Source: Candidatus Nealsonbacteria bacterium (GTDB lineage: Bacteria; Patescibacteriota; Minisyncoccia; Minisyncoccales; JAUWAW01). Taken from it: a DNA stretch of 64,000 nt. Below the pieces are notes generated by a model that was given only the letters and a program-made list of their open reading frames with translations, did not search any database and was not told where the DNA came from. This document shows positions 1-63,873 of the stretch, piece after piece (the first letter of the stretch is position 1; each line of letters begins with the position of its first letter). Both the position numbers and the translations under genes were made by a program. The stretch covers positions 46,433 to 110,432 of the forward strand of contig JAUWAW010000001.1 of assembly GCA_030601865.1 (NCBI GenBank), read 5' to 3'.

Positions 1-302
1 GCCTCCAAGATATTAATCCTGTCAATAACCTTATGCCCGACTCTACCTATCCCCCACTCTATATCTGGATGCTGTTTCAAAAATTTGTAAACCTCCTCTC
101 TTTTTTTAGGTGATAATTTTTTACTATCTTTAAGGGTTGTCATCCTGAGCGAAGCCCGCCCAACTTTCTTCGAAAGTTGGGCGGGCGAAGCGAAGGATCC
201 CGTCGTTTTTACTACTACCGCCGCAGCCACCACTGGGCCTGAAAGCGGTCCGCGGCCTGCTTCATCAATTCCCACCATACGTTTATATCTCTTTTTCGCC
301 AT
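1..302 (-). CDS. rnhB: Ribonuclease HII, N-terminal ~100 aa (gene continues beyond window start)
   Basis: Own minus-strand translation from ATG at 302-300: MAKKRYKRMVGIDEAGRGPLSGPVVAAAVVV...LKDSKKLSPKKREEVYKFL...IDRINILEA. GIDEAGRGP and DSKKL are RNase HII motifs. Not in the ORF track because no stop lies inside the window. Carries a 63-bp palindromic element in frame. Confidence 0.85.
   Translation of the reverse strand, partial: MAKKRYKRMVGIDEAGRGPLSGPVVAAAVVVKTTGSFASPAQLSKKVGRASLRMTTLKDSKKLSPKKREEVYKFLKQHPDIEWGIGRVGHKVIDRINILE
139..201. repeat. Family-1 palindromic element (GTCATCCTGAG..GAAGGATCC) with nested 14-bp hairpin, in frame inside rnhB
   Basis: gtcatcctgagcgaagc-cccgcccaactttc/ttc/gaaagttgggcggg-cgaagcgaaggatccc; 63 bp = 21 codons; related copies at 7966, 8476, 49828. 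Confidence 0.85.
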
Positions 303-4174: not shown

Positions 4175-5914
4175 ATGTCAAACAAAAAAATAGAAAAAAT
4201 TCGGCATTCGCTGGCGCATATTATGGCTGCAACGGTTAAGGAGCTTTATCCAAGAGTCAAATTCGGTATTGGCCCGGCCATTGAAAATGGTTTTTATTAT
4301 GATTTTGATTTAACCTCTCCTCTGTTCCCTGAAAATCTGCCAAAAATTGAAAAGAAAATACGGGAATTGATTAGAAAAGATTTAAAGTTTGAGAAAGAAA
4401 GTATTTCAAGAACAGAAGCCAAAAAAATATTTAAAAACCAACCATATAAATTCGAATTAATTAAAGAACTAAAAGGGCTACAAGTTTCATGTTTCAAGTT
4501 TCATGATTTCGTTGACTTGTGCAAGGGGCCTCATATTAAATCAACCAAAGAAATAAATCCCAAGGCGTTCAAATTAACTAAAATCGCCGGGGCTTACTGG
4601 CGGGGTGATGAGAAAAACCCCATGCTCACCCGCATTTATGGCGTGGCCTTTGAAACAGAAAAAGAATTAAAAGATTATTTAAAACAAGTTGAAGAAGCAG
4701 AACAAAGAGACCATCGTGTTTTGGGTGAAAAATTGGACTTATTTCATATTGATAAAGCCATCGGCCCAGGCCTTATCCTTTGGCATCCCAAAGGCGCACT
4801 CCTCAAAAAAATCATTGAGGATTATGTGCTTTCAGAATACCTAAAAGCCGGCTATCAACTGGTTAACACTCCCCATATTGCTAAAATTTCCATTTGGGAT
4901 ACCTCGGGCCACACCAAATTCTACAAAGACAGTATGTTCCCAGTCATGCAACTCAAGGAAATGGGCAAGGTAATCCCTTATCAGCTCAAACCAATGAATT
5001 GCCCTTTTCATATCTTGATTTATCAAAAAGAAATTAGAAGTTATCGCCAATTACCTATCCGATACACTGAATTAGGCACGGTTTATAGATACGAGAAATC
5101 AGGCACCTTGCACGGGCTGACGCGAGTGCGTGGTTTTACTCAAGATGATGCTCATATTTTCTGCACTCCTGAACAACTTGGTAAAGAGTTAGTGTCTGTT
5201 TTAAAACTAACTTTAAAAATATTTAAAACTTTTGGTTTTAAAGAATTTGAGATATGTCTTTCCACCCGGCCAAAAAAATATGTTGGCACTTTAAAAAGTT
5301 GGCAGAAAGCCACCAATGCTTTAAAATATGCCTTGGAAAAAGTAAAACTTGCCTATCAAATTGACCCTGGCGAGGGCGTTTTCTATGGACCCAAGATTGA
5401 CATTAAAATCAAAGATTCTTTGGGAAGGGCTTGGCAGTGTACCACCATCCAAGTTGATTTCAATTTACCTGAGGGATTTAATTTAAGCTATATTGATAAA
5501 AAAGGCAAAAAGAAACAGCCCATTATGATTCACCGAGCGCTTCTGGGTTCTTTGGAAAGATTTATTGGCGTTTTGATTGAGCATTATGCAGGCGCTTTCC
5601 CTTTGTGGCTGGCTCCAGAACAGACTTGGATTATTCCCGTAGGTACCCGTCACAAAAAATACGCCCGTGAAACATGCAAACAACTCTACGAGAACAGTTC
5701 TCGTAGTATTGTAAAAGACGCCAATGAAACCGTTTCCAAAAAAATAAGGGAAGGGGAAATCCAAAAAATTCCCTATCTCTTGGTTGTCGGCGACAAAGAA
5801 ATAAAAAGAAAATCAGTTAGGGTCCGCCAGCGAGGCAAGGGCGATATTGGAAAAATGAAACTGAATAAATTTATAGAAAAATGCCAGAATTGTCTTTGCA
5901 AACGCAAAAATTAA
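4175..5914 (+). CDS. thrS: Threonine--tRNA ligase (no N-terminal TGS domain)
   Basis: 579 aa; HSLAHIMA editing-domain motif, class II core (YRYEKSGTLHGLTRVRGFTQDDAHIF), C-terminal anticodon-binding domain. Confidence 0.93.
   Translation: MSNKKIEKIRHSLAHIMAATVKELYPRVKFGIGPAIENGFYYDFDLTSPLFPENLPKIEKKIRELIRKDLKFEKESISRTEAKKIFKNQPYKFELIKELKGLQVSCFKFHDFVDLCKGPHIKSTKEINPKAFKLTKIAGAYWRGDEKNPMLTRIYGVAFETEKELKDYLKQVEEAEQRDHRVLGEKLDLFHIDKAIGPGLILWHPKGALLKKIIEDYVLSEYLKAGYQLVNTPHIAKISIWDTSGHTKFYKDSMFPVMQLKEMGKVIPYQLKPMNCPFHILIYQKEIRSYRQLPIRYTELGTVYRYEKSGTLHGLTRVRGFTQDDAHIFCTPEQLGKELVSVLKLTLKIFKTFGFKEFEICLSTRPKKYVGTLKSWQKATNALKYALEKVKLAYQIDPGEGVFYGPKIDIKIKDSLGRAWQCTTIQVDFNLPEGFNLSYIDKKGKKKQPIMIHRALLGSLERFIGVLIEHYAGAFPLWLAPEQTWIIPVGTRHKKYARETCKQLYENSSRSIVKDANETVSKKIREGEIQKIPYLLVVGDKEIKRKSVRVRQRGKGDIGKMKLNKFIEKCQNCLCKRKN
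5687..5705. repeat. Family-4 palindrome TACGAGAACAGTTCTCGTA inside thrS
   Basis: Perfect 9+1+9 palindrome. The 25-nt string ctacgagaacagttctcgtagtatt is identical to the one in mnmA at 40876-40900. Confidence 0.85.
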
Positions 5915-7460: not shown

Positions 7461-9419
7461 ATGAAATATCATATTGTTACTTACGGCTGTCAAATGAATA
7501 AAAGCGACAGTGAGAGGATTGCTACACTATTAGAGAATAAAGGATATCAGCCCGCGAAAGATATTTCTCGGGCTGATTTGGTAGTAATTAATATGTGTTC
7601 TGTTCGCCAAAAACCGGTAGACAAAGCCAAAAACCAGATTGCTCGTCTCCGCAATAAAAAAATTATTTTAATAGGTTGTATTTTAGATGCTGACAAAAAA
7701 GAATTTGCAAAAATGGGAGTTAAAATCTGGAGAGGTCTGACCTCTGCAAAACTTGCAGAGGTCAGACCTCTAACTGGTTTTGTGCCCATTATGAGAGGGT
7801 GTAATAATTTTTGTTCATACTGTGTTGTGCCTTACACTCGAGGGCCGGAAAAATATCGCAGTCAAAAAGAAATTATTGGCGAAGTTAAACATCTTCTTAA
7901 AAAAGGAATTAAAGAAATTACTTTGCTGGGTCAAAATGTCGATAGTTATAAATATAAACCACCACGGGATCCTTCGGCTTCGCCTCAGGATGATAACTCC
8001 GTTGTCAATTTTGTAAAATTACTTCAGAAAATTACTGTCTTGCCCGGCGATTTTAAGATTAAATTTATTACCAATCATCCCAAAGATTTTTCTGATGAAC
8101 TAATCGATGAGATTGCTCGGAATGACAAAATAATCAAATATGTTCACTTGCCAGTGCAGTCAGGTGATAATAAAATCTTAAAAAAGATGAACCGCAATTA
8201 TACTGGTGAGCAGTATTTGGCTTTGATTAAAAAAATTAAAAAGAAAATACCTAATGTTGACCTAACAACTGATATTATTGTTGGCTTTCCCGGTGAAACC
8301 GAAAAACAATTCCAAAAGACAGTTAACTTGTTTAAAAAGATTAAATTTGCTACCGCCTACATTGCCAAATACAGCCCCCGCCCCGGCACCGTTGCCTATA
8401 AACTAAAAGACAACGTCCCCCTCGCAGAAAAAAAGCGCCGAGAACAAACCCTGAGAAAATTAATACCTCCTACCCGTCATTCTGAGGCGAAGCCGAAGAA
8501 TCTCAACCAACGAGATCCTTCGGCTCGCTATCACTCGCCTCAGGATGACAATAACAAACTTATTGTTATTTTGGGGCCGACGGCTGTAGGGAAAACAGAG
8601 TTTTCAATAAAGCTGGCCAAAAAATTTAACGGCCAGGTGATTTCGGCTGACTCCCGTCAGGTCTATAAAGGAATGAACATCGGAACAGGTAAAATAAGCA
8701 AAAAAGAAAGGCAAGGTATCCCCCACTATCTTTTAGATATTGCCTCCCCCAGAAGAAGGTTTTCGGTTGCCCAATATCAAAAAAAGGCGATTGAAGTCAT
8801 AAACAAAATTTTAAAAAAGAAAAAAATCCCGTTTTTAGTAGGCGGAAGTCCTTTTTATATTTACTCTATTGTTGAGGGTTGGGTTTTTCCCAAAATGAAA
8901 GCCGACTTAAAACTGAGAAAAGAATTGGAAAAAAAATCAATTGAAGAACTTTTCAACATATTAAAAAAACTCTCTCCGCAGAGAGCCAAAACAATTGAAA
9001 AGAAAAACAAAAGACGGCTTATCAGGGCAATTGAGATTGCCAAGGCTTTAGGCAAAGTTTTGCCTCTGAAAAAAAATCCCCAATTTGATTGTTTGTTAAT
9101 AGGGATTAAACTAACAAAAGAAAAATTACAAAAAAAAGTTTCCCAAAGAGTTGATAAAATGATTGAATTAGGTCTTGAAAAAGAAGTAAAAAAATTATCT
9201 GAAAAATACGGCTTCAATTCTGTGTTGGGAGAAAGTATTGGCTACCAAGAATGGGAAAAAAGCGGCAGCCGGGCTGCCGCTGAAATAGCAGAGGAAATAA
9301 AATTTAATACTTATCATCTTGCCAAGCGGCAAATGACCTGGTTCAAAAAAGATAAAAGAATCCTTTGGGTTGAGAATTATAAACAAGCGGAAAATTTGAT
9401 CAAAAATTTCTTGGTATAA
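7461..9419 (+). CDS. miaB-miaA: Fusion protein: MiaB-like methylthiotransferase (UPF0004 + radical SAM, no TRAM domain) fused to tRNA dimethylallyltransferase MiaA
   Basis: N-terminus MKYHIVTYGCQMNKSDSE and CNNFCSYCVVPYTRG (MiaB). From about residue 375, LIVILGPTAVGKTEFSIKLAKKFNGQVISADSRQVYKGMNIGTGK (MiaA P-loop). One uninterrupted 652-aa ORF. Confidence 0.85.
   Translation: MKYHIVTYGCQMNKSDSERIATLLENKGYQPAKDISRADLVVINMCSVRQKPVDKAKNQIARLRNKKIILIGCILDADKKEFAKMGVKIWRGLTSAKLAEVRPLTGFVPIMRGCNNFCSYCVVPYTRGPEKYRSQKEIIGEVKHLLKKGIKEITLLGQNVDSYKYKPPRDPSASPQDDNSVVNFVKLLQKITVLPGDFKIKFITNHPKDFSDELIDEIARNDKIIKYVHLPVQSGDNKILKKMNRNYTGEQYLALIKKIKKKIPNVDLTTDIIVGFPGETEKQFQKTVNLFKKIKFATAYIAKYSPRPGTVAYKLKDNVPLAEKKRREQTLRKLIPPTRHSEAKPKNLNQRDPSARYHSPQDDNNKLIVILGPTAVGKTEFSIKLAKKFNGQVISADSRQVYKGMNIGTGKISKKERQGIPHYLLDIASPRRRFSVAQYQKKAIEVINKILKKKKIPFLVGGSPFYIYSIVEGWVFPKMKADLKLRKELEKKSIEELFNILKKLSPQRAKTIEKKNKRRLIRAIEIAKALGKVLPLKKNPQFDCLLIGIKLTKEKLQKKVSQRVDKMIELGLEKEVKKLSEKYGFNSVLGESIGYQEWEKSGSRAAAEIAEEIKFNTYHLAKRQMTWFKKDKRILWVENYKQAENLIKNFLV
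7732..7770. repeat. Perfect 18-bp-arm palindrome in frame inside the miaB part
   Basis: gaggtctgacctctgcaa-aac-ttgcagaggtcagacctc; encodes RGLTSAKLAEVRPL. The antisense frame reads the near-identical RGLTSASFAEVRPL. Confidence 0.9.
7966..7994. repeat. Family-1 element copy in frame inside the miaB radical-SAM part
   Basis: gggatccttcggcttcgcctcaggatgat; encodes RDPSASPQDD. Confidence 0.85.
8476..8549. repeat. Inverted pair of family-1 elements forming the MiaB-MiaA linker
   Basis: gtcattctgaggcgaagccgaagaatctc ... gagatccttcggctcgctatcactcgcctcaggatgac; encodes RHSEAKPKNLNQRDPSARYHSPQDD. Confidence 0.85.
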
Positions 9420-12365: not shown

Positions 12366-13250
12366 TTAGTCGTGCCAGCCGTATTCGTCGGCTGACTCGT
12401 ATTCGTCGGCTGACTCTTGGTTTTCTTTCTCGACCTTTTTGATGAACAGCTTCTGGTCCTGTTCATAATCTAAGCCATTCTTGAGAGCTATTTCAGCCTT
12501 CTGAAGCTCCCGGCCCAAATACATAGCATGTTCCTTGGTCTGTTGGAAATCACCGATTAAGTCAAGATTGACTATTGTTTTACAAATACGTTCTGCTGAA
12601 TCTCCTGTTATTTTACATTTTAATTTATTGTCTTGGAAATGTTCAACGATTATCTTATTCCTTTCTTTATTAATTAAAACAACAAAGAATCCTTTTGGGT
12701 CAGGTATCCAGTCAGGGCAGGAATGAGCTTCTATTTCTGCTACTTTCTCAATTTTCAAAACCTTTGGAGAAAACTCGCTGGGTTTGGTTTGCAAAAGCTT
12801 ATCAATCACTTCTTCAATTTTCTTACCGTCCCTCTCACCTACCATATTGACAGGTGAAATCTGTTTTCTGAATTGTTCAATCAGTTCTTTATCAATACCT
12901 TTTAGATAGGACATATTGCCTTTGGCTCCGATAATCATTTTATCATTGTCTATACCGCTTTTTACAAGACATTCTATTGCTTGAGAGACAAAATGACCTT
13001 TGGAAATTTTCCCGCAAAGAATCAAATACCTGATATTGGGATTGGAAACTATGTTTTGGATTATTTTTTCTATGCCGATGTTCTCTGTAACACATTTACC
13101 CCAGATTGCTACTTTCTGAGGACTGATTTTTATTTCATCAATACTAGCATTAGTGCAAACAGCCACTGGCGAAATTTTATTGCCCACCTCGTATCTTCCC
13201 TGAACTGGCGGCCAATTTTGCAGCTTGCTTTCCATATTGATAAGTCGCAC
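12366..13250 (-). CDS. MtrA-like (tetrahydromethanopterin S-methyltransferase subunit A-like, corrinoid-type) domain fused to a DUF4346-like C-terminal domain
   Basis: NWPPVQGRYEVGN..SPVAVCT...TENIGIEKIIQNIVSNPNIRYLILCGKISKGHFVSQA...IIGAKG aligns closely with archaeal MtrA as I recall it, including the GH histidine. C-terminal DPKGFFVV...HAMYLGRELQKAE resembles DUF4346. Likely start is the ATG at 13235 (MESKLQNW). Confidence 0.8.
   Translation of the reverse strand: MRLINMESKLQNWPPVQGRYEVGNKISPVAVCTNASIDEIKISPQKVAIWGKCVTENIGIEKIIQNIVSNPNIRYLILCGKISKGHFVSQAIECLVKSGIDNDKMIIGAKGNMSYLKGIDKELIEQFRKQISPVNMVGERDGKKIEEVIDKLLQTKPSEFSPKVLKIEKVAEIEAHSCPDWIPDPKGFFVVLINKERNKIIVEHFQDNKLKCKITGDSAERICKTIVNLDLIGDFQQTKEHAMYLGRELQKAEIALKNGLDYEQDQKLFIKKVEKENQESADEYESADEYGWHD
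12381..12416. repeat. Perfect 18-bp tandem duplication at the 3' end of the MtrA-like gene
   Basis: gtattcgtcggctgactc x2, encoding ESADEY-ESADEY. Confidence 0.9.
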
Positions 13251-13287
13251 TAACAGTGCGACGGGTCTGTCGCACTGTTAGTGCGAC
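13244..13287. repeat. Double hairpin / 19-bp-arm palindrome at the dcd stop / MtrA-like start junction
   Basis: gtcgcactaacagtgcgac-gggtct-gtcgcactgttagtgcgac; each arm is itself an 8-bp hairpin; supplies the last ~13 codons of dcd. Confidence 0.85.
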
Positions 13288-13864
13288 AATTAGGCCTAAA
13301 TTCTTGGTTTATTTTGCTGGCTTGAGGAGATTCCTGTTTATCGTATTTCTGAGCTTTTTTTTCTGAATAGGAAACCTCGCAAGGACCAGAAAGCGTCTCA
13401 AAAGTCAAGGCGCAAACCCGCATCCCGGCATATAAAATAATGGGCATAATTCCCAAATTCCCCAATTCCATCACTGCTTTTCCCTGCCAACCAGGGTCAA
13501 AGCGAGCGGCGGTTGAATGAACTATCATTCCCAACCTACCCAAAGAACTTCTACCATCCAGTCTTGCCATTATATCATTGGGTAAAATTATTTCTTCTTT
13601 TGTTATAGCAATCACAAATTCTTTTGATTGCAAGATAAAAGGAGCTCCATCTTCTATTTTTACTTCCTCCATTAATTTTTCGAAATTGATATCTCTTTTA
13701 AGGTCTAAATAGGGATATTGAGAGGGCTTAAAAGTTTTAAAAATATTGCCTAAATGTAAATCTAAGGAACAAGGTCCTAATTGCTTTTCAAAATCGGGCT
13801 CAGGCTTGATTGTGATTTTTCCTTCCCTAATATATTTTTTTATGTCTTTGTCTGAGAGAATCAT
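13250..13864 (-). CDS. dcd: dCTP deaminase
   Basis: 204 aa; MILSDKDIKKYI, GPCSLDLHLGN, RLDGRSSLGRLG and FDPGWQG motifs of the dUTPase-fold Dcd family. The C-terminal tail RPNCRTNSATDPSHC is encoded by the palindrome. Confidence 0.9.
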   Translation of the reverse strand: MILSDKDIKKYIREGKITIKPEPDFEKQLGPCSLDLHLGNIFKTFKPSQYPYLDLKRDINFEKLMEEVKIEDGAPFILQSKEFVIAITKEEIILPNDIMARLDGRSSLGRLGMIVHSTAARFDPGWQGKAVMELGNLGIMPIILYAGMRVCALTFETLSGPCEVSYSEKKAQKYDKQESPQASKINQEFRPNCRTNSATDPSHC

Positions 13865-15948: not shown

Positions 15949-15954
15949 AATGAA

Positions 15955-16090
15955 ATAACCAATAACCAAGATACAATAACCAAACAAATCTCAATAACCA
16001 ATAATCAATAACCAATTATATAATGTTTGGTTATTGGTGTTTGAAGATTGGTTATTGTTTGGTTATTGTTTCTTGTATCTTGGTGATTGA
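15955..16090. repeat. ~130-bp long-hairpin repeat (AATAACCAA arm / TTGGTTATT arm), copy 1
   Basis: About 90 percent identical by eye to 56757-56883 and in the same orientation; lies between the nusG stop and the rplK start. Confidence 0.85.
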
Positions 16091-26770: not shown

Positions 26771-27403
26771 ATGGAACTCAAAAAACCTGACATCCGTTAT
26801 CTTAATAATATGAAAGAGGTACTTTGTGACCAGGAGTGGGCAAAAGATGCTCCTAATCTTGAGCTTTATTATATGTATCGCTACACAAAACGCGACGGCG
26901 CTTTGAGATATGACATTACTGAAATCCCATTTCAAATGTTAGGCAAAGAATATGTTAAAACAAAAGGCCACAGTCACGCAGGCGCCGAAACCTACGAGGT
27001 TTTACAAGGCAAAGCTATCTTCCTTCTCCAAAAATGTAACGAGAAAAAACCTGACGAGAAGACTTCTCGTCAGGTTGAGGATGTTTATGCGGTTGAGGTA
27101 AAAAGTGGTGATAAGGTATTTATTCCTGCTCATTACGGACATGTAACCATTAATCCCGGACCCGAAGACCTCAAAATGGCAAATTGGGTTTCCGACGCAT
27201 TCAAGTCAGATTATTCCCTTTATCTTGAAAAACAAGGCGCTTGCTATTACTGTATTAAAGGAAATCGGCCCCCATCACTCTGCAAGAGTGAGGGGGTAAA
27301 CTGGATTAAAAACGAAAATTATGGTAAAGTGCCAGAACTAAGATTTGAAAAGCCAAACAAAAATATTCCTGAAGATTTAAAGAAAGCTTTGATGGGAGAA
27401 TAA
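26771..27403 (+). CDS. pgi: Cupin-type (archaeal-type) glucose-6-phosphate isomerase
   Basis: 210 aa; TKGHSHAGAETYEVLQGKAIFLLQ and SGDKVFIPAHYGHVTINPG match Pyrococcus-type PGI as recalled. Confidence 0.8.
   Translation: MELKKPDIRYLNNMKEVLCDQEWAKDAPNLELYYMYRYTKRDGALRYDITEIPFQMLGKEYVKTKGHSHAGAETYEVLQGKAIFLLQKCNEKKPDEKTSRQVEDVYAVEVKSGDKVFIPAHYGHVTINPGPEDLKMANWVSDAFKSDYSLYLEKQGACYYCIKGNRPPSLCKSEGVNWIKNENYGKVPELRFEKPNKNIPEDLKKALMGE
27048..27076. repeat. 14-bp-arm palindrome in frame inside cupin PGI
   Basis: aacctgacgagaag-a-cttctcgtcaggtt; encodes KPDEKTSRQV in a loop about 12 aa longer than in Pyrococcus PGI. Confidence 0.85.
27269..27296. repeat. Family-8 palindrome (CCCCC..CAC..CTGCAA..GTG..GGGGG) in frame inside cupin PGI
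   Basis: cccccatcactc-tgcaa-gagtgaggggg; encodes RPPSLCKSEG; related to the yraN copy at 54282. Confidence 0.8.
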
Positions 27404-40488: not shown

Positions 40489-41640
40489 TTAACATATAAT
40501 TATTCCGCCGCCTAAAAGTTTTTCTCCTTTATAGAAAACCACTGATTGACCCGGGGTGACGGCGCGTTGGGGCTTGGCAAAAATTACTTTACAGCGCCTG
40601 CCCGCTATTTTTTTTATTGCTTCAACTTCAATTACTGGCGAACGATACCTTATTTTCGCTTTTATCCCAACTATTGGAGTTGAACTCCAATAGTTTGAAA
40701 TCCAGTTAACATCTTTGACAATCAATTCTTTTTTTTCCAAATGTTTTTCGTTCTTGGTGACAATTAAAGCATTATTTTTGACATCCTTGTCTAAAACATA
40801 GTATGGACCTCCGGCAAGCCCTATCCCCTTTCGCTGACCAATAGTATAAAACCACAACCCCTGATGCTCGCCAATACTACGAGAACAGTTCTCGTAGTAT
40901 TCTAAGATGGGGCCAGGATTTGTTTTAAGATGTTTTCTCAAAAATTCCTCTGTTGTTTTTTTAATAAAGCAAACTTCTTGAGATTCTCTGGCTTCAAGTA
41001 CCGGCAAGTCAAACTCCTTGGCCATCTGTCTTACTTGTCTTTTGGTGTAATCCCCAATGGGAAACAAAATGTGTTTTAATTGTTTCTGGCCCAACTGCCA
41101 TAAAAAATATGATTGATCTTTTTCTTTATCTTTTGCTCTTACCAATGTGTAATTTTGTATTTTTGTGTCAGAATTCTGCGACCTGCCCGTAATGCTTCGC
41201 ATAGCGATACAGGCGGGTCGCAGGATTTTGACACAGTTTAGATCTTTATTTGTATTTTCACATTTACGCGCATAGTGGCCAGTGGCAATAAAATCTGCGT
41301 CCAAGCCCAAGGCTTTTTTCAATAAAAGTCCAAATTTTATTTCTTTGTTGCAGACCACACAAGGGTTGGGGGTTCTGCCTCTTTTATATTCTTTCAAAAA
41401 ATAATTAATGATTTTTCTCTTAAACTCTTTTCTTAAATCCAAAACCAAAAATGGAATGCCTAATTTTTTAGCAATTTTTCTGACTCTTCTCTCACTTTCT
41501 CTGAAATGAGACGACTCATAAAGTTTCATAAAAACTCCTGTTACATTAAAATTAGCCCTTTTAAGAAGGGCTGCTGCTACCGAACTATCCACGCCACCGG
41601 ACATCGCCACTATTACCTTATTTTTTCTTTTTGCTTTCAT
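40489..41640 (-). CDS. mnmA: tRNA-specific 2-thiouridylase MnmA
   Basis: 383 aa; VAMSGGVDSSVAA, NPCVVCN, ATGHYAR, KDQSYFLW, CFI; carries two palindromic elements in frame. Confidence 0.92.
   Translation of the reverse strand: MKAKRKNKVIVAMSGGVDSSVAAALLKRANFNVTGVFMKLYESSHFRESERRVRKIAKKLGIPFLVLDLRKEFKRKIINYFLKEYKRGRTPNPCVVCNKEIKFGLLLKKALGLDADFIATGHYARKCENTNKDLNCVKILRPACIAMRSITGRSQNSDTKIQNYTLVRAKDKEKDQSYFLWQLGQKQLKHILFPIGDYTKRQVRQMAKEFDLPVLEARESQEVCFIKKTTEEFLRKHLKTNPGPILEYYENCSRSIGEHQGLWFYTIGQRKGIGLAGGPYYVLDKDVKNNALIVTKNEKHLEKKELIVKDVNWISNYWSSTPIVGIKAKIRYRSPVIEVEAIKKIAGRRCKVIFAKPQRAVTPGQSVVFYKGEKLLGGGIIIC
40874..40900. repeat. Family-4 palindrome inside mnmA
   Basis: atactacgagaac-a-gttctcgtagtat; encodes YYENCSRSI (thrS copy encodes YENSSRSI). 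Confidence 0.85.
41164..41235. repeat. Family-2 element (TGTGTCAAAATCCTGCGA/TCGCAGGATTTTGACACA), expanded copy in frame inside mnmA
   Basis: tgtgtcagaattctgcgac-[34-nt insert]-gtcgcaggattttgacaca; 72 bp = 24 codons (CVKILRPACIAMRSITGRSQNSDT). Confidence 0.85.
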
Positions 41641-46997: not shown

Positions 46998-47028
46998 AAA
47001 ACTATCGAGAACTGTTCTCGATAGTTTT
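46998..47028 (-). terminator. Family-4 variant palindrome acting as the lepA terminator
   Basis: aaaactatcgagaa-ctg-ttctcgatagtttt; 14-bp stem; on the minus strand it is followed by ttttggttt. Confidence 0.6.
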
Positions 47029-48833
47029 TAACTTCTAAGGAGTTTCAGGTATATTTCCTCGGGAATAGGGGTGCGGCCGTGTTTTTGGAGAATTTTTTTG
47101 CCTTTGCGTTGTTTGACTAAGAGTTTCTTTTTGCGGGTAAAGTCGCCGCCGTACAGGGGCGCGGTCACATCCTTGCGCAGGGCGCGGATATCCTCACGCG
47201 CGATTATTTTGCCGCCAATTTGGGCTTGAAGCGATTGGGTAAAGTTTTTTGGAGGCAGGACATCCTTTAATCTTTTGAGAAACTGACGCGCCTGCTTGCG
47301 CGCCGCGTCTTTATAAACAATGCGCGAGAAACAGGGCTTCAGTTCGCGCGAAACCAAAAACTCAAGTTTAATAAGGTCGCTTTTTTTATACTCGTCAAAT
47401 TCGTAACTAAAGGAAGCGAACCCCTTGCTAATGCTTTTCAGTTTGTCTAAAAAATCCTCAATAATCTCAGCAAGCGGCGCATAAAACTCTAAAAGCAAGG
47501 TATCTTTATCTAAAACTTGCGAGGAAATAAACTTGCCTCGTTTCTGCTCAACTAATTCATGGATTTTGCTGTTGTGTCTGGTCGGGCTGACAATGTTTAA
47601 TTTAACCCAGGACTCCGCTATATAGTCAATCTCGCCCTGGTCCGGCAGTTCTGCGGCCGAATGGACTAAAATCGGCTCTTTTTGCTTTTTTGTCTTTACC
47701 TTGAAAACAACCGAAGGAGAAGTAAGAACCACTTGGGTGCCATACTCCCGCTTTAACCTTTCCATGGTGATTTCCAGATGAAGCATACCTAAAAAGCCGA
47801 TGCGCAGTCCCCTGCCTAAATAAGGATTGCTCATAGGTTTGGCTGTGAGAGAAGTGTCGTTGAGCCGCAGTTTGTCAAAATTGGCTTTCAGGGTTTCAAA
47901 GTTTTGGCCTTGCCCTTGCCCCTGCCCCGGAAAAACATTGGCAAAAACCAATGGCTTGGGCTCTTTATAGCCAGGCAGGCGAGGACAGTCCTCGCCTGAT
48001 TTGGTTGTTATTGTCTCGCCGATTCTGACGTCTGAAACGTTTTTTATGCCCGTGGCGATGTAGCCGATTTGGCCGGCTATTAGTTTTGGCACAGGACTAC
48101 GTTGCGGTATGAAAATGCCGACTTCTCTTGTTTCGGCGCGGACTTTTTGATTGACAAAATAAATTTGGTCGCCTTTTTTGATTTCGTTGCCAAACAGCCG
48201 CACATAGGCAATTACTCCCTGAAAATTGTCGTAAATTGAATCAAAAACCAGGGCTTTTAATACTCCTCCGCCCTCTGTTTTTGGCTGCGGCGCCTGCTTT
48301 ATCAACGCTTCAAGAACTTTCTCTATATTCTCGCCTGTTTTGGCGGAAATAGTTAAAATTTCCCCTGAATCAATACCTAAAAGATTGGCTAATTCCTGCT
48401 TAACTTTTTCTAATTGCTCCTCGCTCGGACAAACATCTATTTTATTGATAACCGGTATTATTTTCAAACTCTGCGCCTGCGCCAGGCGCAGATTAGCCAG
48501 GGTCTGTGCCTGAATGCCTGAAACCACGTCAACCAATAAAATAACACATTCAACAGCGGCCAAAGACCGTTCTACTTCATAGGAAAAATCCATATGGCCA
48601 GGCGTGTCAATCAAGTTTAATTGGTACTTGCGGCCGGCCAGACCATACTCCATTGCACAGGGCTGCATCTTGATAGTGATGCCGCGCTCTCTTTCCAAAT
48701 CCATCTGGTCCAAAACCTGTTCGCGCATCTGCTCTTTCTTCAAGGTGTTGGTAATTTCCAAAAACCGGTCAGCCAGAGTTGATTTGCCGTGGTTTATATG
48801 CGCGATTATAGAGAAATTTCGTATATTTCCCAT
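47028..48833 (-). CDS. lepA: Elongation factor 4
   Basis: 601 aa; IRNFSIIAHINHGKSTLADR G1 motif, DTPGH, NKID, LepA C-terminal domain; visibly more GC-rich than its neighbours. Confidence 0.95.
   Translation of the reverse strand: MGNIRNFSIIAHINHGKSTLADRFLEITNTLKKEQMREQVLDQMDLERERGITIKMQPCAMEYGLAGRKYQLNLIDTPGHMDFSYEVERSLAAVECVILLVDVVSGIQAQTLANLRLAQAQSLKIIPVINKIDVCPSEEQLEKVKQELANLLGIDSGEILTISAKTGENIEKVLEALIKQAPQPKTEGGGVLKALVFDSIYDNFQGVIAYVRLFGNEIKKGDQIYFVNQKVRAETREVGIFIPQRSPVPKLIAGQIGYIATGIKNVSDVRIGETITTKSGEDCPRLPGYKEPKPLVFANVFPGQGQGQGQNFETLKANFDKLRLNDTSLTAKPMSNPYLGRGLRIGFLGMLHLEITMERLKREYGTQVVLTSPSVVFKVKTKKQKEPILVHSAAELPDQGEIDYIAESWVKLNIVSPTRHNSKIHELVEQKRGKFISSQVLDKDTLLLEFYAPLAEIIEDFLDKLKSISKGFASFSYEFDEYKKSDLIKLEFLVSRELKPCFSRIVYKDAARKQARQFLKRLKDVLPPKNFTQSLQAQIGGKIIAREDIRALRKDVTAPLYGGDFTRKKKLLVKQRKGKKILQKHGRTPIPEEIYLKLLRS
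47906..47930. repeat. Hexanucleotide-type repeat encoding (GQ)4 inside lepA
   Basis: ggccttgcccttgcccctgccccgg; encodes PGQGQGQGQ. Confidence 0.8.
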
Positions 48834-50434
48834 TAATATTCTTCTTCAAAGATTTGGGCGGTGAAAGTGTAGAGGTCAATATCTTCTTCTTTCCAGCAGT
48901 CCCAGGGCAGACCGACTTTTTGAAAGCAAAGTTCTCCCATAAATTTTTCTAAATCCCAATTATTGTCAGTAGCTACTTGGGGCAGAAAAACACCATTTCT
49001 CAAGCCCTTTCTAATTTGCACGCCGTGTTTGCCAATCTCAATTCCCTGCCAATTATCAATTTTCTCTAAGGGACTCAAAACCGAAATTTCATAGTCAAGC
49101 TCACCAAGTTCATCCTCTCCCACAGGATAAAATCTTTTATCCTGGGTGGCAGCCGCAATGGCCATTTGAGAAACAACTTGATACAGAGGTATGTCAGTGG
49201 GTGAAAAACGGCCAATGCAGCCCCGTAGCTGGCTCTGCTTCTTTAAAGTAACAAAAGCACCCAAGTTTTGATTTAATATGGATTCTTCAACTTGAAATTC
49301 TGGAATTTTACCTTCTTTGACAAAAGTTTCAACTGAATTCTTAGCGATTTCCAAAAGTTTTTCTTGCTCTGTTTTCTTTAATAAATGACTCTGTCTTGGT
49401 CCAAAAAAGCCAATGGCTGCATAGCCAACCACTTGCGATTTATCACCTATGGGCACGTCTCCGGAATTGGCATATTTTAATAATTTAATTTCTTCAGCAG
49501 CCAATTCTTTGGCTACTAACATGATTGTTTTGATAGCATCTTCTGCGCAAACAAAAGTTACTGCTCCAGGAATATTCTCTTTTTCCAAGTCCTGAATTGT
49601 TTTTTCTAACTCCCCTACCCTACCGGTTAAAATGGCTTCAATGGTTTTGCTATCTGCCTGTTGAGCATCACCATAGCTAGGATAATGCGACAAATCAGAA
49701 CTGGCAATCAGTAAAATATTCTTACCTCTGATATTTTTAACAATGGCTTGAGCTAAAATTTTGTAATCTTCTTCTGGGCTGTTGCCCAAAATAATGGGTA
49801 CAATCCGTGGTACGTGCACGGACAAAGGAGATCCTTCGGCCTTCGGCCTCAGGATGACTTGCAAAAAAGGTAATTCCACCTCAAGGGAATGCTCTCTTTG
49901 ATGAACACTCTCTCTGAAAAAAATTCTTTCGTTTTCTGCAATAATTTTTTCAGCTAATTGAGAATCTATTTCTACTTCTCCTAAGGGAGTTTTATAAAAA
50001 CCTCGTGGGAAAATAGAAATACCTTCAAATCTCTCATAATGGCTGTTGCCAATAAGAATCACCGTAGCAAATTGGTTCAAATCGTGACGATCGTCATAAC
50101 TTGAACCACCCATCAGTTGCTTAAAGCCGTAGGCGGCCACGGGGCCAGAAAATGGATAGCCAGCATGGGGCAGAACTAAAGCAAAAATCTCGCCTTCGGT
50201 TTCTGGCGGACTTGCCTTTTCCAAAAATTGGTCAATCATTTTCTCTAACTCCTCAGGGTCTCCAGGATAAAATTGTCCAGCCACTGCCGGCTGCCGAATT
50301 ATTTTTTCTTCTTTTTCAAAAACGTCTGAAACCATAGCTTTTTGAGAAATATCTTCCCCTCCCTTAAATATTAAAAGTATACTAATCGCACCAACAACAA
50401 AAATTAATAAAGCTATTATTAGAACTTTCTTCAT
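48833..50434 (-). CDS. AmmeMemoRadiSam system fusion: protein B (Memo-like) + protein A (AMMECR1), with N-terminal membrane anchor
   Basis: 533 aa. TM helix at residues ~3-23. Memo motifs PAVAGQFYPG, LPHAGYPFSGPVAA, SSDLSHYP. AMMECR1 motifs GAFVTLKK..LRGCIGRF, DKRFYPV, ISVLSP, GVFLPQVA. Confidence 0.85.
   Translation of the reverse strand: MKKVLIIALLIFVVGAISILLIFKGGEDISQKAMVSDVFEKEEKIIRQPAVAGQFYPGDPEELEKMIDQFLEKASPPETEGEIFALVLPHAGYPFSGPVAAYGFKQLMGGSSYDDRHDLNQFATVILIGNSHYERFEGISIFPRGFYKTPLGEVEIDSQLAEKIIAENERIFFRESVHQREHSLEVELPFLQVILRPKAEGSPLSVHVPRIVPIILGNSPEEDYKILAQAIVKNIRGKNILLIASSDLSHYPSYGDAQQADSKTIEAILTGRVGELEKTIQDLEKENIPGAVTFVCAEDAIKTIMLVAKELAAEEIKLLKYANSGDVPIGDKSQVVGYAAIGFFGPRQSHLLKKTEQEKLLEIAKNSVETFVKEGKIPEFQVEESILNQNLGAFVTLKKQSQLRGCIGRFSPTDIPLYQVVSQMAIAAATQDKRFYPVGEDELGELDYEISVLSPLEKIDNWQGIEIGKHGVQIRKGLRNGVFLPQVATDNNWDLEKFMGELCFQKVGLPWDCWKEEDIDLYTFTAQIFEEEY
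49828..49858. repeat. Family-1 element copy in frame inside the Memo domain
   Basis: gagatccttcggccttcggcctcaggatgac; encodes (minus strand) VILRPKAEGSP. Confidence 0.85.
50074..50107. repeat. Family-3 element (TTCAAATCGTnnCGATCGTCATAA..TGAA) in frame inside the Memo domain
   Basis: ggttcaaatcgtgacgatcgtcataacttgaacc; encodes SSYDDRHDLNQ. Confidence 0.8.
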
Positions 50435-51609: not shown

Positions 51610-51645
51610 TGTGTCAAAATCCTGCGATCGCAGGATTTTGACACA
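51610..51645. repeat. Family-2 element, perfect 36-bp palindrome, intergenic
   Basis: tgtgtcaaaatcctgcga|tcgcaggattttgacaca; contains GCGATCGC; identical to 56120-56155. Confidence 0.95.
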
Positions 51646-54152: not shown

Positions 54153-54566
54153 ATGCTAAGTCGCAAACAACTGGGGAAATTTGGTGAAGATATTGCTGTT
54201 AAATATCTCAAAAAGCGCGGCTATAAGATTTTGGCAAGGAATTGGCAAAACAAATGGGGAGAGATTGATATTGTGGCCTCGCCCCCCACCACTTTTCTGC
54301 AAAAAGTGGTGGGGGGTAAAAAGAAAAAAATAATTGTTTTCTGCGAAGTTAAAACAATAGAAAAAAAGCCGGGGTTTAGCCCGGAAGATGAAATTGATTG
54401 GAAAAAAGAAAGGCAGCTTTCAAAAATGGCTCAAATTTATTTATCCAGTAATAAAATTCCTCTGGAAAGCCCTTGGCGGATTGATGTTTTAGCCATAGAA
54501 ATTGACCCTTTCTCTGAAAATCCTTCCATCCGCCACTTTGAAAACGTTATCGAGGATAGTTATTAA
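54153..54566 (+). CDS. yraN: YraN-family (UPF0102) endonuclease-like protein
   Basis: 137 aa; GEDIAVKYLKKRGYKILARNW..GEIDIVA ... VFCEVKT; interrupted in frame by a 35-bp palindrome. Confidence 0.85.
   Translation: MLSRKQLGKFGEDIAVKYLKKRGYKILARNWQNKWGEIDIVASPPTTFLQKVVGGKKKKIIVFCEVKTIEKKPGFSPEDEIDWKKERQLSKMAQIYLSSNKIPLESPWRIDVLAIEIDPFSENPSIRHFENVIEDSY
54282..54316. repeat. Family-8 palindrome, 15-bp perfect stem, in frame inside yraN
   Basis: ccccccaccactttt-ctgca-aaaagtggtgggggg; encodes PPTTFLQKVVGG between GEIDIVA and the VFCEVKT strand. Confidence 0.9.
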
Positions 54567-56119: not shown

Positions 56120-56155
56120 TGTGTCAAAATCCTGCGATCGCAGGATTTTGACACA
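56120..56155. repeat. Family-2 element, perfect 36-bp palindrome between dnaB and recR
   Basis: Identical to 51610-51645. Confidence 0.95.
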
Positions 56156-56756: not shown

Positions 56757-56883
56757 CACCAATAACCAAGAAACAATAACCAAACAAATTTCAATAACCA
56801 ATAACCAATTTCCAAACTGTTTGGTTATTGATGTTTGAAGATTGGTTATTGTTTGGTGATTGTATCTTGTATCTTGGTTATTT
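56757..56883. repeat. ~130-bp long-hairpin repeat, copy 2
   Basis: Between convergent recR and rplU; overlaps the last codons of rplU; same orientation as copy 1. Confidence 0.85.
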
Positions 56884-62829: not shown

Positions 62830-63873
62830 TTCTTCCACTATCTTGGACATCTCCATTTCTTGGGAGCCGTCGATGAGGATGAGGTCGCCTTGCCTAAGTT
62901 CTTTTTGCAGGGCCAGGCCGGCCTCTTCCGGCTGCATAAACTGGAAAACTTTTCCTTGGCTCATCCCCTGTATGATAGCTCCTTGAGTAATAAACTTGGC
63001 GCGCGCGCCTACTGTAAAAAGCAAATCGCAAGACCCGGCTACTTTCTCACCAATGGCCTCATGTGACTGAGTGGTATATTTGCCAATGCCCAAAACATCG
63101 CCCAAAACAGCAATTTTTCTGCCAGAAGCAGGGATTTTTCCTAAAATTCCCAGAGCCTCAACCATAGAAAAAGGGTTGGCATTGGCACTATCATCTAAAA
63201 TTTGGGAATTTTTTATCCCCTTAATTAGTCGCATCTTGCCGGGAAGGGATTGATAAAACCTGAGGGTCTGAGAGAGTTTCACTAAATTAATATCTAAGAC
63301 CATTCCCACAGCAGTAGCTGCCAGCACGCTATACATCTGTTTTTTGCCAAAAAGATTCTCCAGCCAAATCGGAACAATATTTCCTTTATAATTGAGTTTA
63401 AAATTTGTTCCCTTTTCACTTATATGAATATCACTTGCTTGAAAATCTGTTGCTTCAGAAAGGCCAAAAGTTAAAGCAGGGGTTTTGCTCTCATCCTTTA
63501 TCTCCCTGACCGTCTCATCATCAGCATTCAAAACCAAATGTGCTCGCCTCGCCGAAAACGGCGAGGCGAGGCGGGCCTGCTTTGGCAAAACTTTAGCCAA
63601 CTCTATTACCCTGACCACATCTTTTTTCTCCCCAGCAAACAAAACCTCATCAGCAGGTATCTCGCCTACGGCAGTAATCACTAAAATAGTTTTTCTTGCT
63701 TTTTTCACAAAAAAAAGGTCAGGAATGCCTTCTAAAATTAAAAATTTTGTTTTGCCAAAGTGCTTTTTTAGAACTTGAAAAATCGCCTCAGCCGCACAAG
63801 CCCGACCCTTGCCAGTGACAACGATTAGTATGGGACGTTTAATAAGAAATAAAAGTTTGGTGAGAAAACTCAT
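62797..63873 (-). CDS. Mur ligase family protein, MurF-like, short form with degenerate P-loop
   Basis: 358 aa; C-terminal MurF pattern VLGDVLGIGKY...HEAIG...GDLILIDGSQEMEM; N-terminal nucleotide loop reads VVTGKGRACAAE rather than TGSNGKTT. Confidence 0.65.
   Translation of the reverse strand: MSFLTKLLFLIKRPILIVVTGKGRACAAEAIFQVLKKHFGKTKFLILEGIPDLFFVKKARKTILVITAVGEIPADEVLFAGEKKDVVRVIELAKVLPKQARLASPFSARRAHLVLNADDETVREIKDESKTPALTFGLSEATDFQASDIHISEKGTNFKLNYKGNIVPIWLENLFGKKQMYSVLAATAVGMVLDINLVKLSQTLRFYQSLPGKMRLIKGIKNSQILDDSANANPFSMVEALGILGKIPASGRKIAVLGDVLGIGKYTTQSHEAIGEKVAGSCDLLFTVGARAKFITQGAIIQGMSQGKVFQFMQPEEAGLALQKELRQGDLILIDGSQEMEMSKIVEELRTSRFAREP
63543..63570. repeat. 12-bp perfect-stem GC-rich hairpin in frame inside the murF-like gene
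   Basis: ctcgcctcgccg-aaaa-cggcgaggcgag; encodes LASPFSARRA just before the LVLNADD motif. Confidence 0.85.

Follow-up and report, generated by a model that had tools for sequence, protein, structure and literature searches.

Repetitive extragenic palindromic (REP) sequences and REP doublets forming hairpins (REPINs) are short imperfect palindromes that occur as singlets and inverted doublets, are mainly extragenic and high-copy, and have a partner gene that is itself flanked by the repeats (PMC3116915, PMC2817692, PMC3733652). Rickettsia palindromic elements (RPEs) are the textbook case of frequent in-frame insertion, and MITEs (miniature transposable elements with inverted repeats) occasionally give in-frame fusions (PMC10969869). 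Here we analyze a hairpin repeat present in a 64,000-nt stretch (hereafter the window) of the genome of a Candidatus Nealsonbacteria bacterium (contig JAUWAW010000001.1, positions 46,433 to 110,432), a member of the Candidate Phyla Radiation (CPR). The repeat is written in frame into three conserved genes of the window, belongs to a family that is widespread in Bacteria, and in other genomes adjoins a gene encoding a very small GIY-YIG nuclease.

In anatomy this element (25 nt in its commonest form, an imperfect hairpin, singlets plus inverted doublets) is nearer to REP/REPINs than to RPEs. Like REP/REPINs and their REP-associated tyrosine transposases (RAYTs), it joins a 20–40-nt imperfect palindrome, whose hairpin is supported by covariation, to a conserved short 5' tag, prominent inverted doublets and a partner enzyme gene flanked by repeats. 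It differs in that the partner is a ~95-aa GIY-YIG nuclease (PF01541) and not a Y1 HUH transposase (IS200/IS605-like), in that the tag is T-GTC-A/G rather than GTAG/GTGG or CGTC, and in that the partner gene is often multicopy and in-frame intragenic copies are common. The original prediction, made from the letters of the window, had called the behavior RPE-like. This holds insofar as both kinds of palindromic repeat lie in frame in unrelated housekeeping genes at fold-compatible positions (PMC10969869), here as lineage-specific indels at loops and linkers. However, RPEs are ~100–150 bp long and restricted to Rickettsia, whereas this element is 25–61 nt long, is pan-bacterial and has a candidate partner gene. 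An RPE family encodes one conserved peptide, whereas the present repeat is read as GSFAS..LRMT, DPSASPQDD, HSEAKPKN or VILRPKAEGS, in three frames and both orientations. It is probably also unrelated in sequence to RPE-1 to RPE-10.

The "+ spacer -" doublets resemble MITEs in having terminal inverted repeats around a short non-coding core, and they look like internally deleted "+ gene -" units. Unlike in MITEs, no target-site duplication was seen and each "terminal repeat" is a complete hairpin that also occurs alone. The putative parent is only 360–440 bp long, and its sole linked open reading frame (ORF) encodes a GIY-YIG nuclease of 93–104 aa that belongs to no known transposase family; a 2024 MITE review does not mention GIY-YIG (PMC10969869). 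GIY-YIG homing endonucleases (I-TevI, phage Seg proteins) share with the linked nuclease the catalytic domain PF01541, weak family matches and a selfish, horizontally spreading habit, but the linked nuclease has no recognizable DNA-binding domain, and its gene is neither intronic nor beside a cognate target gene, being embedded in hairpin repeats in unrelated contexts. The small dispersed repeats of Nostoc and other cyanobacteria, reportedly described by Elhai et al. in 2008, are said to be 21–27 nt long, hairpin-capable and often nested, and to have been argued to be mobile; they are also said to be cyanobacteria-specific, with other sequences and with no enzyme identified. Searches of open-access full text returned no paper containing the element sequence in either orientation, no link of GIY-YIG genes to REP-like repeats and nothing relevant on in-frame palindromic elements in CPR. 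No earlier description was found in the open-access literature searched, and our claim of novelty is provisional.

Five hairpin copies in frame in three genes

A search with the pattern GTCATYCTGAG-N(7-41)-CGAAGRATC gave five copies at four sites of the window. The chance expectation was zero for both this gapped pattern and a 27-mer consensus (up to 3 mismatches) in 100 dinucleotide-preserving shuffles. The window copies are 27–61 nt long, the family minimum being 25 nt. The copies, their parts and their host genes are as follows.

3-302, minus strand: RNase HII gene (rnhB), N-terminal 100 codons; the gene continues past the window start
139-199, plus strand: copy 1, 61 nt, in rnhB and antisense to it; translation GSFASPAQLSKKVGRASLRMT; laid out as GTC, ATCCT, GA, GCGAAGC, a 29-nt palindrome, GCGAAGC, GA, AGGAT, C
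156-191, plus strand: nested insertion in the apex of copy 1, 36 nt (12 codons), placed by codon alignment with RNase HII of locus L321; made up of the perfect palindrome CCGCCCAACTTTC-TTC-GAAAGTTGGGCGG and a 7-nt direct duplication of GCGAAGC
7461-9419, plus strand: MiaB-MiaA fusion gene, 652 aa, without a TRAM domain
7968-7994, minus strand: copy 2, 27 nt, antisense, in the MiaB radical-SAM domain; translation RDPSASPQDD
8476-8502, plus strand: copy 3, 27 nt, sense, left arm of the MiaB-MiaA linker doublet; translation RHSEAKPKNL
8503-8513, plus strand: spacer of the doublet, 11 nt, TCAACCAACGA
8514-8549, minus strand: copy 4, 36 nt, the doublet's right arm, its apex lengthened by one more GA/GA module; translation RDPSARYHSPQDD
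48833-50434, minus strand: Memo-AMMECR1 fusion gene (AmmeMemoRadiSam proteins B/A), 533 aa
49804-49822, minus strand: small second hairpin, TCCGTG-GTACGTG-CACGGA, adjoining copy 5 within the same 11-codon insertion
49830-49858, minus strand: copy 5, 29 nt, sense, in the Memo domain; translation VILRPKAEGS

All five copies are in long ORFs of the three host genes, where they occupy three frames; relative to the host gene two are sense and three antisense. The palindromic copies reported by the original prediction are real, and its coordinates were right to within 2 bases (139-201, 7966-7994 and 49828-49858 became 139-199, 7968-7994 and 49830-49858). Its placement of the copies in frame in conserved enzymes was also borne out, the translations that it quoted being confirmed in the long ORFs. 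The further statement that the frames are stop-free is correct for those used; of the six frames of the element four are stop-free and two contain TGA, neither of which is used by a window copy. Copy 2 starts with ATCAT and not GTCAT. Given the GCGAAGC duplication, the boundaries of the nested insertion in copy 1 could equally be placed at 149-184, and a perfect 15-bp stem lies at 154-186. The G+C content is 38.6% across the window, ~95% of which is covered by a greedy ORF map.

A Logan assembly of run SRR14872663 agrees with the window at 100% identity across 12,266 bases, among them those of the Memo copy, although these reads may not be independent of the NCBI metagenome-assembled genome (MAG). 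The insert-spanning peptides predicted from translation are PPRDPSASPQDDNS, LQVILRPKAEGSPL and TTGSFASPAQLSK. A half-site at 8116-8125 was rejected as a chance resemblance, the conserved MiaB peptide DEIARNDK being encoded there.

Anatomy and covariation of the hairpin

The window copies have a common fold composed of an unpaired GTC, the 5-bp stem ATCCT/AGGAT, a symmetric GA/GA internal loop, a 2–4-bp G+C stem and a GAA loop. In copy 3 the outer stem is ATTCT/AGAAT, a double compensatory change relative to ATCCT/AGGAT. The family core can be written T-GTC-(5-bp stem)-GA-(GCGNAGC or a longer mini-hairpin)-GA-(stem complement)-C-T. Its commonest form is the 25-nt sequence GTCATYCTGAG-CGNAG-CGAAGRAT-C, usually with a T before and after it and with flanks that are otherwise unrelated. 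The 5-base loop CGNAG is present in 65 of 82 minimal copies, the apex being otherwise hypervariable.

Covariation was scored on copies anchored on the core GAGCGNAGCGA only, so that the loci were not stem-selected. Perfectly complementary 5-bp stems were found in 82 of 90 copies and fell into at least eight types (ATTCT, ATCCT, ATGCT, ACCCT, ATCCC, ATTCC, ACTCT and ATACT). The complementarity of the outer stem is real compensatory covariation. Note that the mini-hairpin d(GCGAAGC) is a classic DNA structure of unusual stability and that tandem sheared G.A pairs require a Y-GA-R context, which is present in the element.

Rfam searches at gathering and permissive thresholds returned only two tRNAs plus chance matches. 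A hammerhead ribozyme was dismissed by inspection because the string CUGA..GAA lacks the UGA of the hammerhead core.

The inserts among orthologous proteins

In the RNase HII of the window 22 residues are unaligned versus 5 in the E. coli enzyme; the original prediction had given 25 versus about 8. The RNase HII of the syntenic relative L321 has a minimal 25-nt element at identical codons (GSFASLRMT), to which the window adds 36 nt in the apex. The copy is an old shared insertion plus a later nested one. It is 61 nt long and not the single 63-bp element that had been proposed. All 24 shared element bases are identical between the window and L321 versus 77.5% of the flanking codons. Among codons for the same amino acid 64% are identical, compared with 8 of 8 within the element (p ~0.03).

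At the first MiaB site (copy 2) the insert corresponds to an exact 9-residue gap versus the Bacteroides uniformis MiaB structure (PDB 7mjv). The gain is 18 codons (54 nt) relative to the nearest relatives, and the copy is missing from the orthologs of alignment A1, including the nearest ones, P0002-P0009. This loop is variable, other orthologs having inserts of other types in it. An ortholog of the linker doublet is present in L323 (protein P0003, 67% identical), with different apices and spacer; the doublet is missing in L321 (P0002, 69% identical), where the linker is short. Copy 5 in Memo is unique among 50 orthologs. The 49 closest sequences all lack the insert and read LQK.L-xxF-KIVPI, whereas the window segment reads LQVILRPKAEGSPLSVHVPRIVPI, a net gain of 11 codons (33 nt). 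At the DNA level, ~21 nt of ancestral sequence were swapped for the 29-nt element plus the second small hairpin. The net insertions at the four sites (36, 33, 54 and 66–72 nt) are all multiples of three.

The expectation that the inserts map to loops agreed with an AlphaFold model of the MiaB-MiaA fusion. The mean predicted local distance difference test score (pLDDT) of the model is 85.5, whereas the linker doublet (residues 338-362) scores below 50 and the site-1 insert (residues 171-180) is modeled as coil with a mean of 59.

MiaB-MiaA fusions are widespread in Patescibacteria. They are 578–730 aa long, and a C-terminal TRAM domain (PF01938) is present in 4 of the 40 aligned in A1. They differ in length because of inserts at a few loop sites, and many of these inserts have peptides of the type encoded by other G+C-rich hairpins (LPADGAGQ, FSAQGGPASGW, PAGRQAVGRD).

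The family is not specific to CPR

Fixed-pattern scans of one genome per species (GTDB) and of the IMG/VR viral contigs each returned at least 120 loci. The matches listed place the family in more than 20 phyla of Bacteria as well as in viral contigs. These matches included Acidobacteriota, Chloroflexota, Bacteroidota (the isolates Lacinutrix jangbogonensis and Mucilaginibacter sp. L196), Firmicutes, Nitrospirota, Nitrospinota, Planctomycetota, Verrucomicrobiota, Gemmatimonadota, Ignavibacteria, Rhodothermales, alpha-, gamma- and deltaproteobacteria, Bdellovibrionales, a Helicobacter MAG, Cloacimonadota, Omnitrophota, Fermentibacteria and Melainabacteria. The CPR groups among them were Saccharibacteria, Paceibacterota, Gracilibacteria, Komeilibacteria and Moranbacteria. 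By rough arithmetic a uniform random model predicts ~100 pattern matches in the 596 Gb scanned. The matches are not random, however, because the CGNAG loop recurs as given above, many loci have several copies and inverted pairs are abundant.

The family is therefore not a CPR peculiarity. The tally of coding versus intergenic copies that the original prediction proposed came out differently in the two settings. A crude ORF map places 114 of the 184 copies outside the window between genes, even though ORF cover per locus is typically ~0.75–0.99; this recalls the extragenic habit of REPs, whereas all 5 window copies are intragenic. Of the outside copies scored as "intragenic", many sit in short, probably spurious ORFs, and in other CPR genomes, too, copies often lie between genes (for example L003, L043, L080 and L110). 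Adjacent copies form "+ then -" pairs in 110 of 177 cases, with the GTCAT ends outward, a median spacer of 33 nt and spacers from 4 nt up. The linker doublet of the window (8476-8549) has this same outward arrangement, the commonest paired form of the family. Singlets plus such doublets match the organization described for REPs and REPINs (PMC3116915).

In-frame copies are also present in other bacteria, in proteins identified by inspection. In Lacinutrix, a copy read as CHSEQSEES lies between conserved strands of HisA; the linker that precedes the DNA-binding domain of a Bacteroidales NtrC-type regulator holds a "+ -" doublet (VILSEAKNL..DSSANGLRMT); and a methyltransferase of a gammaproteobacterial MAG has one copy. 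In-frame behavior is thus a property of the family and not of CPR.

In a Helicobacter sp. MAG (L089, CASEHV010000011.1, 3-4964) two adjacent long ORFs, one of them NuoG-like by inspection, carry whole and half elements in long in-frame arrays, which are read as repeated "..(T/S/A)QND" peptides. In the Nitrospirales chromosome OZ251550.1 (L014, 3362-4195) a long tandem array (AAGMTEGR)n stands beside element copies and another hairpin-derived peptide, VIPAKAGIQ, which suggests that several families of related hairpins (GTCATTCCCGC..-type) occur side by side and build arrays.

Linkage to a GIY-YIG nuclease gene

A GIY-YIG gene was present at 3 of 240 hairpin-selected loci, and at all three of these genome loci an element lies within ~60 nt of the 3' end of the gene. 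The encoded protein (93–104 aa) matches Pfam GIY-YIG PF01541 with E = 5e-17 and consists of the catalytic module alone (~90 aa). The converse search used 80 metagenome loci picked by protein only, with the peptide patterns REK[EQ][IL]KGW and [SG]FTA[RK]YN. On either side of the gene, out to 300 nt, the half-site motif occurred at these loci 25–43 times per 100-nt bin versus ~1 expected (the motif has a chance rate of ~1 per 8 kb), and its density was at background more than 500 nt from the gene. Full elements numbered 383 in 252 kb versus 25 in shuffles. They lie 15–35 nt upstream of the start of the protein match and 5–45 nt downstream of its end, and many nuclease ORFs read into the downstream element, giving such tails as ..DPSLRSG and ..DSSLRSE, each followed by a stop, or ..GLRMT... 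Of 67 loci tallied, 50 had an element on both sides, and "+ gene -" was the commonest arrangement (22 of the 50); 28 loci overall had such units, which are 360–440 bp long. As an association, the link between nuclease and hairpin is strong.

The nuclease is 70–75% identical among Saccharibacteria, Deltaproteobacteria, Chloroflexota, Nitrospirae and others. Its gene is often on very short contigs, and identical proteins are found on up to 38 contigs. This distribution is the signature of a multicopy, horizontally moving gene. By sequence the nuclease had no PDB relative, no NCBIfam family above cutoff and no PADLOC defense family, and it gave only weak matches to homing-endonuclease PHROGs.

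The same gene-hairpin architecture is found in a cultured cyanobacterium, on the closed plasmid p1 of Planktothrix agardhii No.66, where the gene is annotated "GIY-YIG nuclease family protein". It lies between an MmeI restriction-modification gene and the DISARM gene drmA (L326 1180-2060; NZ_LR882964.1, ~18.5–19.4 kb). Doublets and piled-up half-elements surround the gene. There a full doublet is flanked by tandem left half-elements (GTCATTCTGAG + 12 nt) and tandem right half-elements (..ATTCAGGATGAC + ~20 nt), one type per side. These pile-ups look like repeated self-insertion at the hairpin apex, or slippage. In two otherwise identical metagenome contigs (L268 and L270) a hairpin-array block of ~370 nt downstream of the GIY-YIG gene differs. 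This could be array expansion or contraction by recombination or an assembly collapse, and it has no bearing on the chemistry of insertion.

A proposed origin of the hairpins

The explanation that we favor, and consider somewhat probable, is that the repeats are non-autonomous hairpins of a selfish element linked to the GIY-YIG gene, that selection has filtered them to in-frame sites, and that they constitute a very short REP/REPIN-like family across Bacteria. In such a scheme the nuclease would recognize the folded hairpin, probably on one DNA strand, and would either mobilize hairpin singlets and doublets in trans or travel together with them, the package of gene and hairpin moving between phyla. 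GIY-YIG enzymes such as UvrC and Slx1 are structure-selective nucleases. The GA/GA mismatches would make the two strands non-equivalent, so that one strand may be the one read, suggesting a single-stranded DNA intermediate; REP-RAYT, IS200/IS605 and attC systems read one DNA strand through such strand asymmetry.

In a ~95%-coding CPR genome nearly every new copy would land in a gene. Those that persist would be loop or linker copies that keep to one of the four stop-free frames and have a net length divisible by three, and the surviving copies would be translated as 9–21 extra residues. Because the window is ~95% coding, the finding of all five copies in ORFs needs no special mechanism (0.95^5 = 0.77). 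Likewise, the lack of a broken reading frame would reflect removal of non-tolerated copies by selection and not a dedicated mechanism.

More tentatively, and with the odds somewhat against it, the data may point to a class of ultra-small mobile DNA that is undescribed and spans the whole domain. The autonomous form would be a 360–440-bp unit encoding only a GIY-YIG nuclease of 93–104 aa between two 25-nt hairpins, and the singlets and doublets would be non-autonomous progeny that spread within genomes and across phyla and that in gene-dense genomes are routinely written into proteins. If true, this would be a GIY-YIG counterpart of REPIN-RAYT and among the smallest self-contained mobile elements known. 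It would add a minimal GIY-YIG nuclease as a new class of enzyme partnering REP-like hairpin repeats, in a pair that would cross phylum boundaries almost unchanged, unlike the vertically inherited REPIN-RAYT. It would also give a concrete source for many short lineage-specific inserts and linkers in CPR proteins. Moreover, a 93-residue nuclease reading a 25-nt hairpin would be attractive for biochemistry. There is also a practical side, in that hairpins break assemblies and seed spurious ORFs, and recognizing them improves MAG annotation. The peptides ..SLRMT, ..AQDD/QND, VILSEAKD and HSERSEES recur in hypothetical or extended ORFs of metagenome annotation, the tails of the GIY-YIG ORFs being one example.

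Several observations weigh against a nuclease-driven origin. The Memo and MiaB site-1 inserts are missing in orthologs, as expected of the clean indels that the original prediction proposed, but the net gains (+33 and +54 nt, and +36 nt in RNase HII) are not the element length. Neither a precise empty site nor a target-site duplication was found: no direct repeats flank the outer ends of the 28 units or of minimal copies, and the sole duplication is the 7-nt one at the nested insertion. Nearest-neighbor calculations give the minimal hairpin weak energies (DNA -2.7 kcal/mol, z = -0.8; RNA z -1 to -2.7), and folding energies did not differ between the two strands. Thermodynamics is thus uninformative for the minimal hairpin and the structural case rests on covariation. 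Flank orientation is not exclusive, since (-,+) was found at 11 loci, (+,+) at 10 and (-,-) at 7, so that hairpin clusters could be the target of the gene as a guest, which would then not be their mobilizer. Co-evolution of nuclease and hairpin was looked for and not found, as the nucleases of units with ACCCT left ends form no clade (identity 0.64 within versus 0.62 between groups). Few copies of the gene are on plasmids (34 PLSDB records) or in cultured phages (11 records, distant, <40% identity). Finally, a motif regular expression and a hidden Markov model built from 80 homologs picked up no GIY-YIG gene of this family in the 64 kb of the window or in the contigs of relatives examined, which leaves a resident mobilizing enzyme hypothetical for this genome.

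Alternative explanations

The association could run the other way, a reading that we think rather unlikely but regard as the main rival. The hairpins would spread by another route (host replication or repair, or another enzyme), and the GIY-YIG gene would be a homing-type selfish gene that enters hairpin clusters, as insertion sequences (IS) of the IS1397 type target REPs and bacterial interspersed mosaic elements (BIMEs). Such IS targeting of REPs is documented in work listed among the references of PMC3116915. The mixed orientation of the nearest elements just given fits a guest gene, as do the frequent location of GIY-YIG genes between full doublets and not inside one, the presence of the gene at only 3 of 240 hairpin-selected loci, and a window with five copies and no nuclease gene. 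Against this, the elements lie at a very short and consistent distance from both ORF ends, the commonest solo pairing ("+ then -") mirrors the commonest gene-flanking arrangement, and no other mobilizing gene was seen. A homing gene alone would also leave a near-identical 25-nt sequence across phyla unexplained, unless gene and hairpin travel together.

The version put forward in the original prediction, a palindromic family of the CPR lineage that is RPE-like and has a particular propensity for coding regions, seems to us improbable. The family is present in more than 20 phyla among the matches listed and is mostly intergenic there, CPR copies elsewhere are often intergenic too, and five of five in ORFs is the chance expectation at 95% coding density. 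The differences in size (25–61 versus ~100–150 nt) and in reading (several frames versus one conserved peptide) count against it as well. It draws what strength it has from the five in-frame copies of the window, from the many other hairpin-like inserts at the same loops of orthologous CPR proteins and from the RPE precedent for frequent in-frame insertion (PMC10969869).

We give slightly less credence still to a host-selected cis-element, whether acting in RNA (stability, processing, termination or a tandem G.A protein site) or in DNA (a REP-like gyrase or IHF site), with the intragenic copies exapted. The strong compensatory covariation of the outer stem, the conserved GA/GA internal loop and the 24 of 24 identical nucleotides of the RNase HII copy versus 77.5% of flanking codons (p ~0.03) would suit such a function. 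It is opposed by the lack of any preferred direction relative to transcription (of the window copies 2 are sense and 3 antisense, and orientation is mixed elsewhere), by the UC/UC that the complementary strand has in place of GA/GA, and by the lack of a T-run after the hairpin and of an Rfam family match. Presence and absence among close orthologs, pile-ups and arrays look selfish rather than regulatory.

Removal of the segments before the mature protein is made, as with introns or inteins, would render frame preservation incidental. CPR genomes are known for rRNA-gene insertions, but here every net insertion is a multiple of three and a stop-free frame is used although two of six contain TGA, and the elements are far too small for group I/II introns or inteins and gave no Rfam ribozyme match, which makes this a very remote prospect. 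Chance similarity or ancestral look-alike protein segments can practically be set aside, since zero chance matches are expected, the same DNA is read in different frames and orientations, and there are orthologs without the segments.

Additional palindromes of the window

Apart from this family, the window contains other hairpins. In total there are 36 perfect hairpins with a stem of at least 9 bp, compared with 1–12 (mean ~4.5) in 20 block shuffles. About 22 of the 36 are inside ORFs, in agreement with the earlier estimate of well over ten in-frame hairpins. Hairpin colonization of coding sequence in this genome thus extends well beyond one family. G+C-rich hairpins inside ORFs lie at 9261-9281, 47976-47998, 48470-48492, 54282-54316 and 63543-63573.

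The N-terminal domain of MiaB contains a perfect palindrome of a different hairpin family with 19-bp arms, AGAGGTCTGACCTCTGCAA-AAC-TTGCAGAGGTCAGACCTCT, at 7731-7771. It is in frame and its translation is RGLTSAKLAEVRPL. The homologous segment in L321 and L323 is only 3 codons shorter, the 41-nt palindrome corresponding to just +9 nt, and the ortholog P0019 has a similar peptide (VRP..TGLTS) at another site.

A further palindrome family has the core ACGAGAAC-N-GTTCTCGT, with perfect stems of 10–15 bp and a 1-nt loop, at 5686-5706, 27048-27076, 40873-40901 and 46998-47028. One of these copies is at a gene edge, and the other three are in ORFs, one of which is the threonyl-tRNA synthetase gene. 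Identical perfect 36-nt palindromes, with the half-sequences TGTGTCAAAATCCTGCGA and TCGCAGGATTTTGACACA, are intergenic at 51610-51645 and 56120-56155, and an extended variant with 33-nt arms lies at 41164-41235 inside the ORF 40489-41640. The intergenic stretches 15954-16089 and 56758-56882 are arrays of AATAACCAA-type units that form long imperfect inverted repeats. A perfect inverted repeat with 19-bp arms (GTCGCACTAACAGTGCGAC / GTCGCACTGTTAGTGCGAC), each arm being itself palindromic, lies at 13244-13287, at the junction of the minus-strand genes 12366-13250 and 13250-13864.

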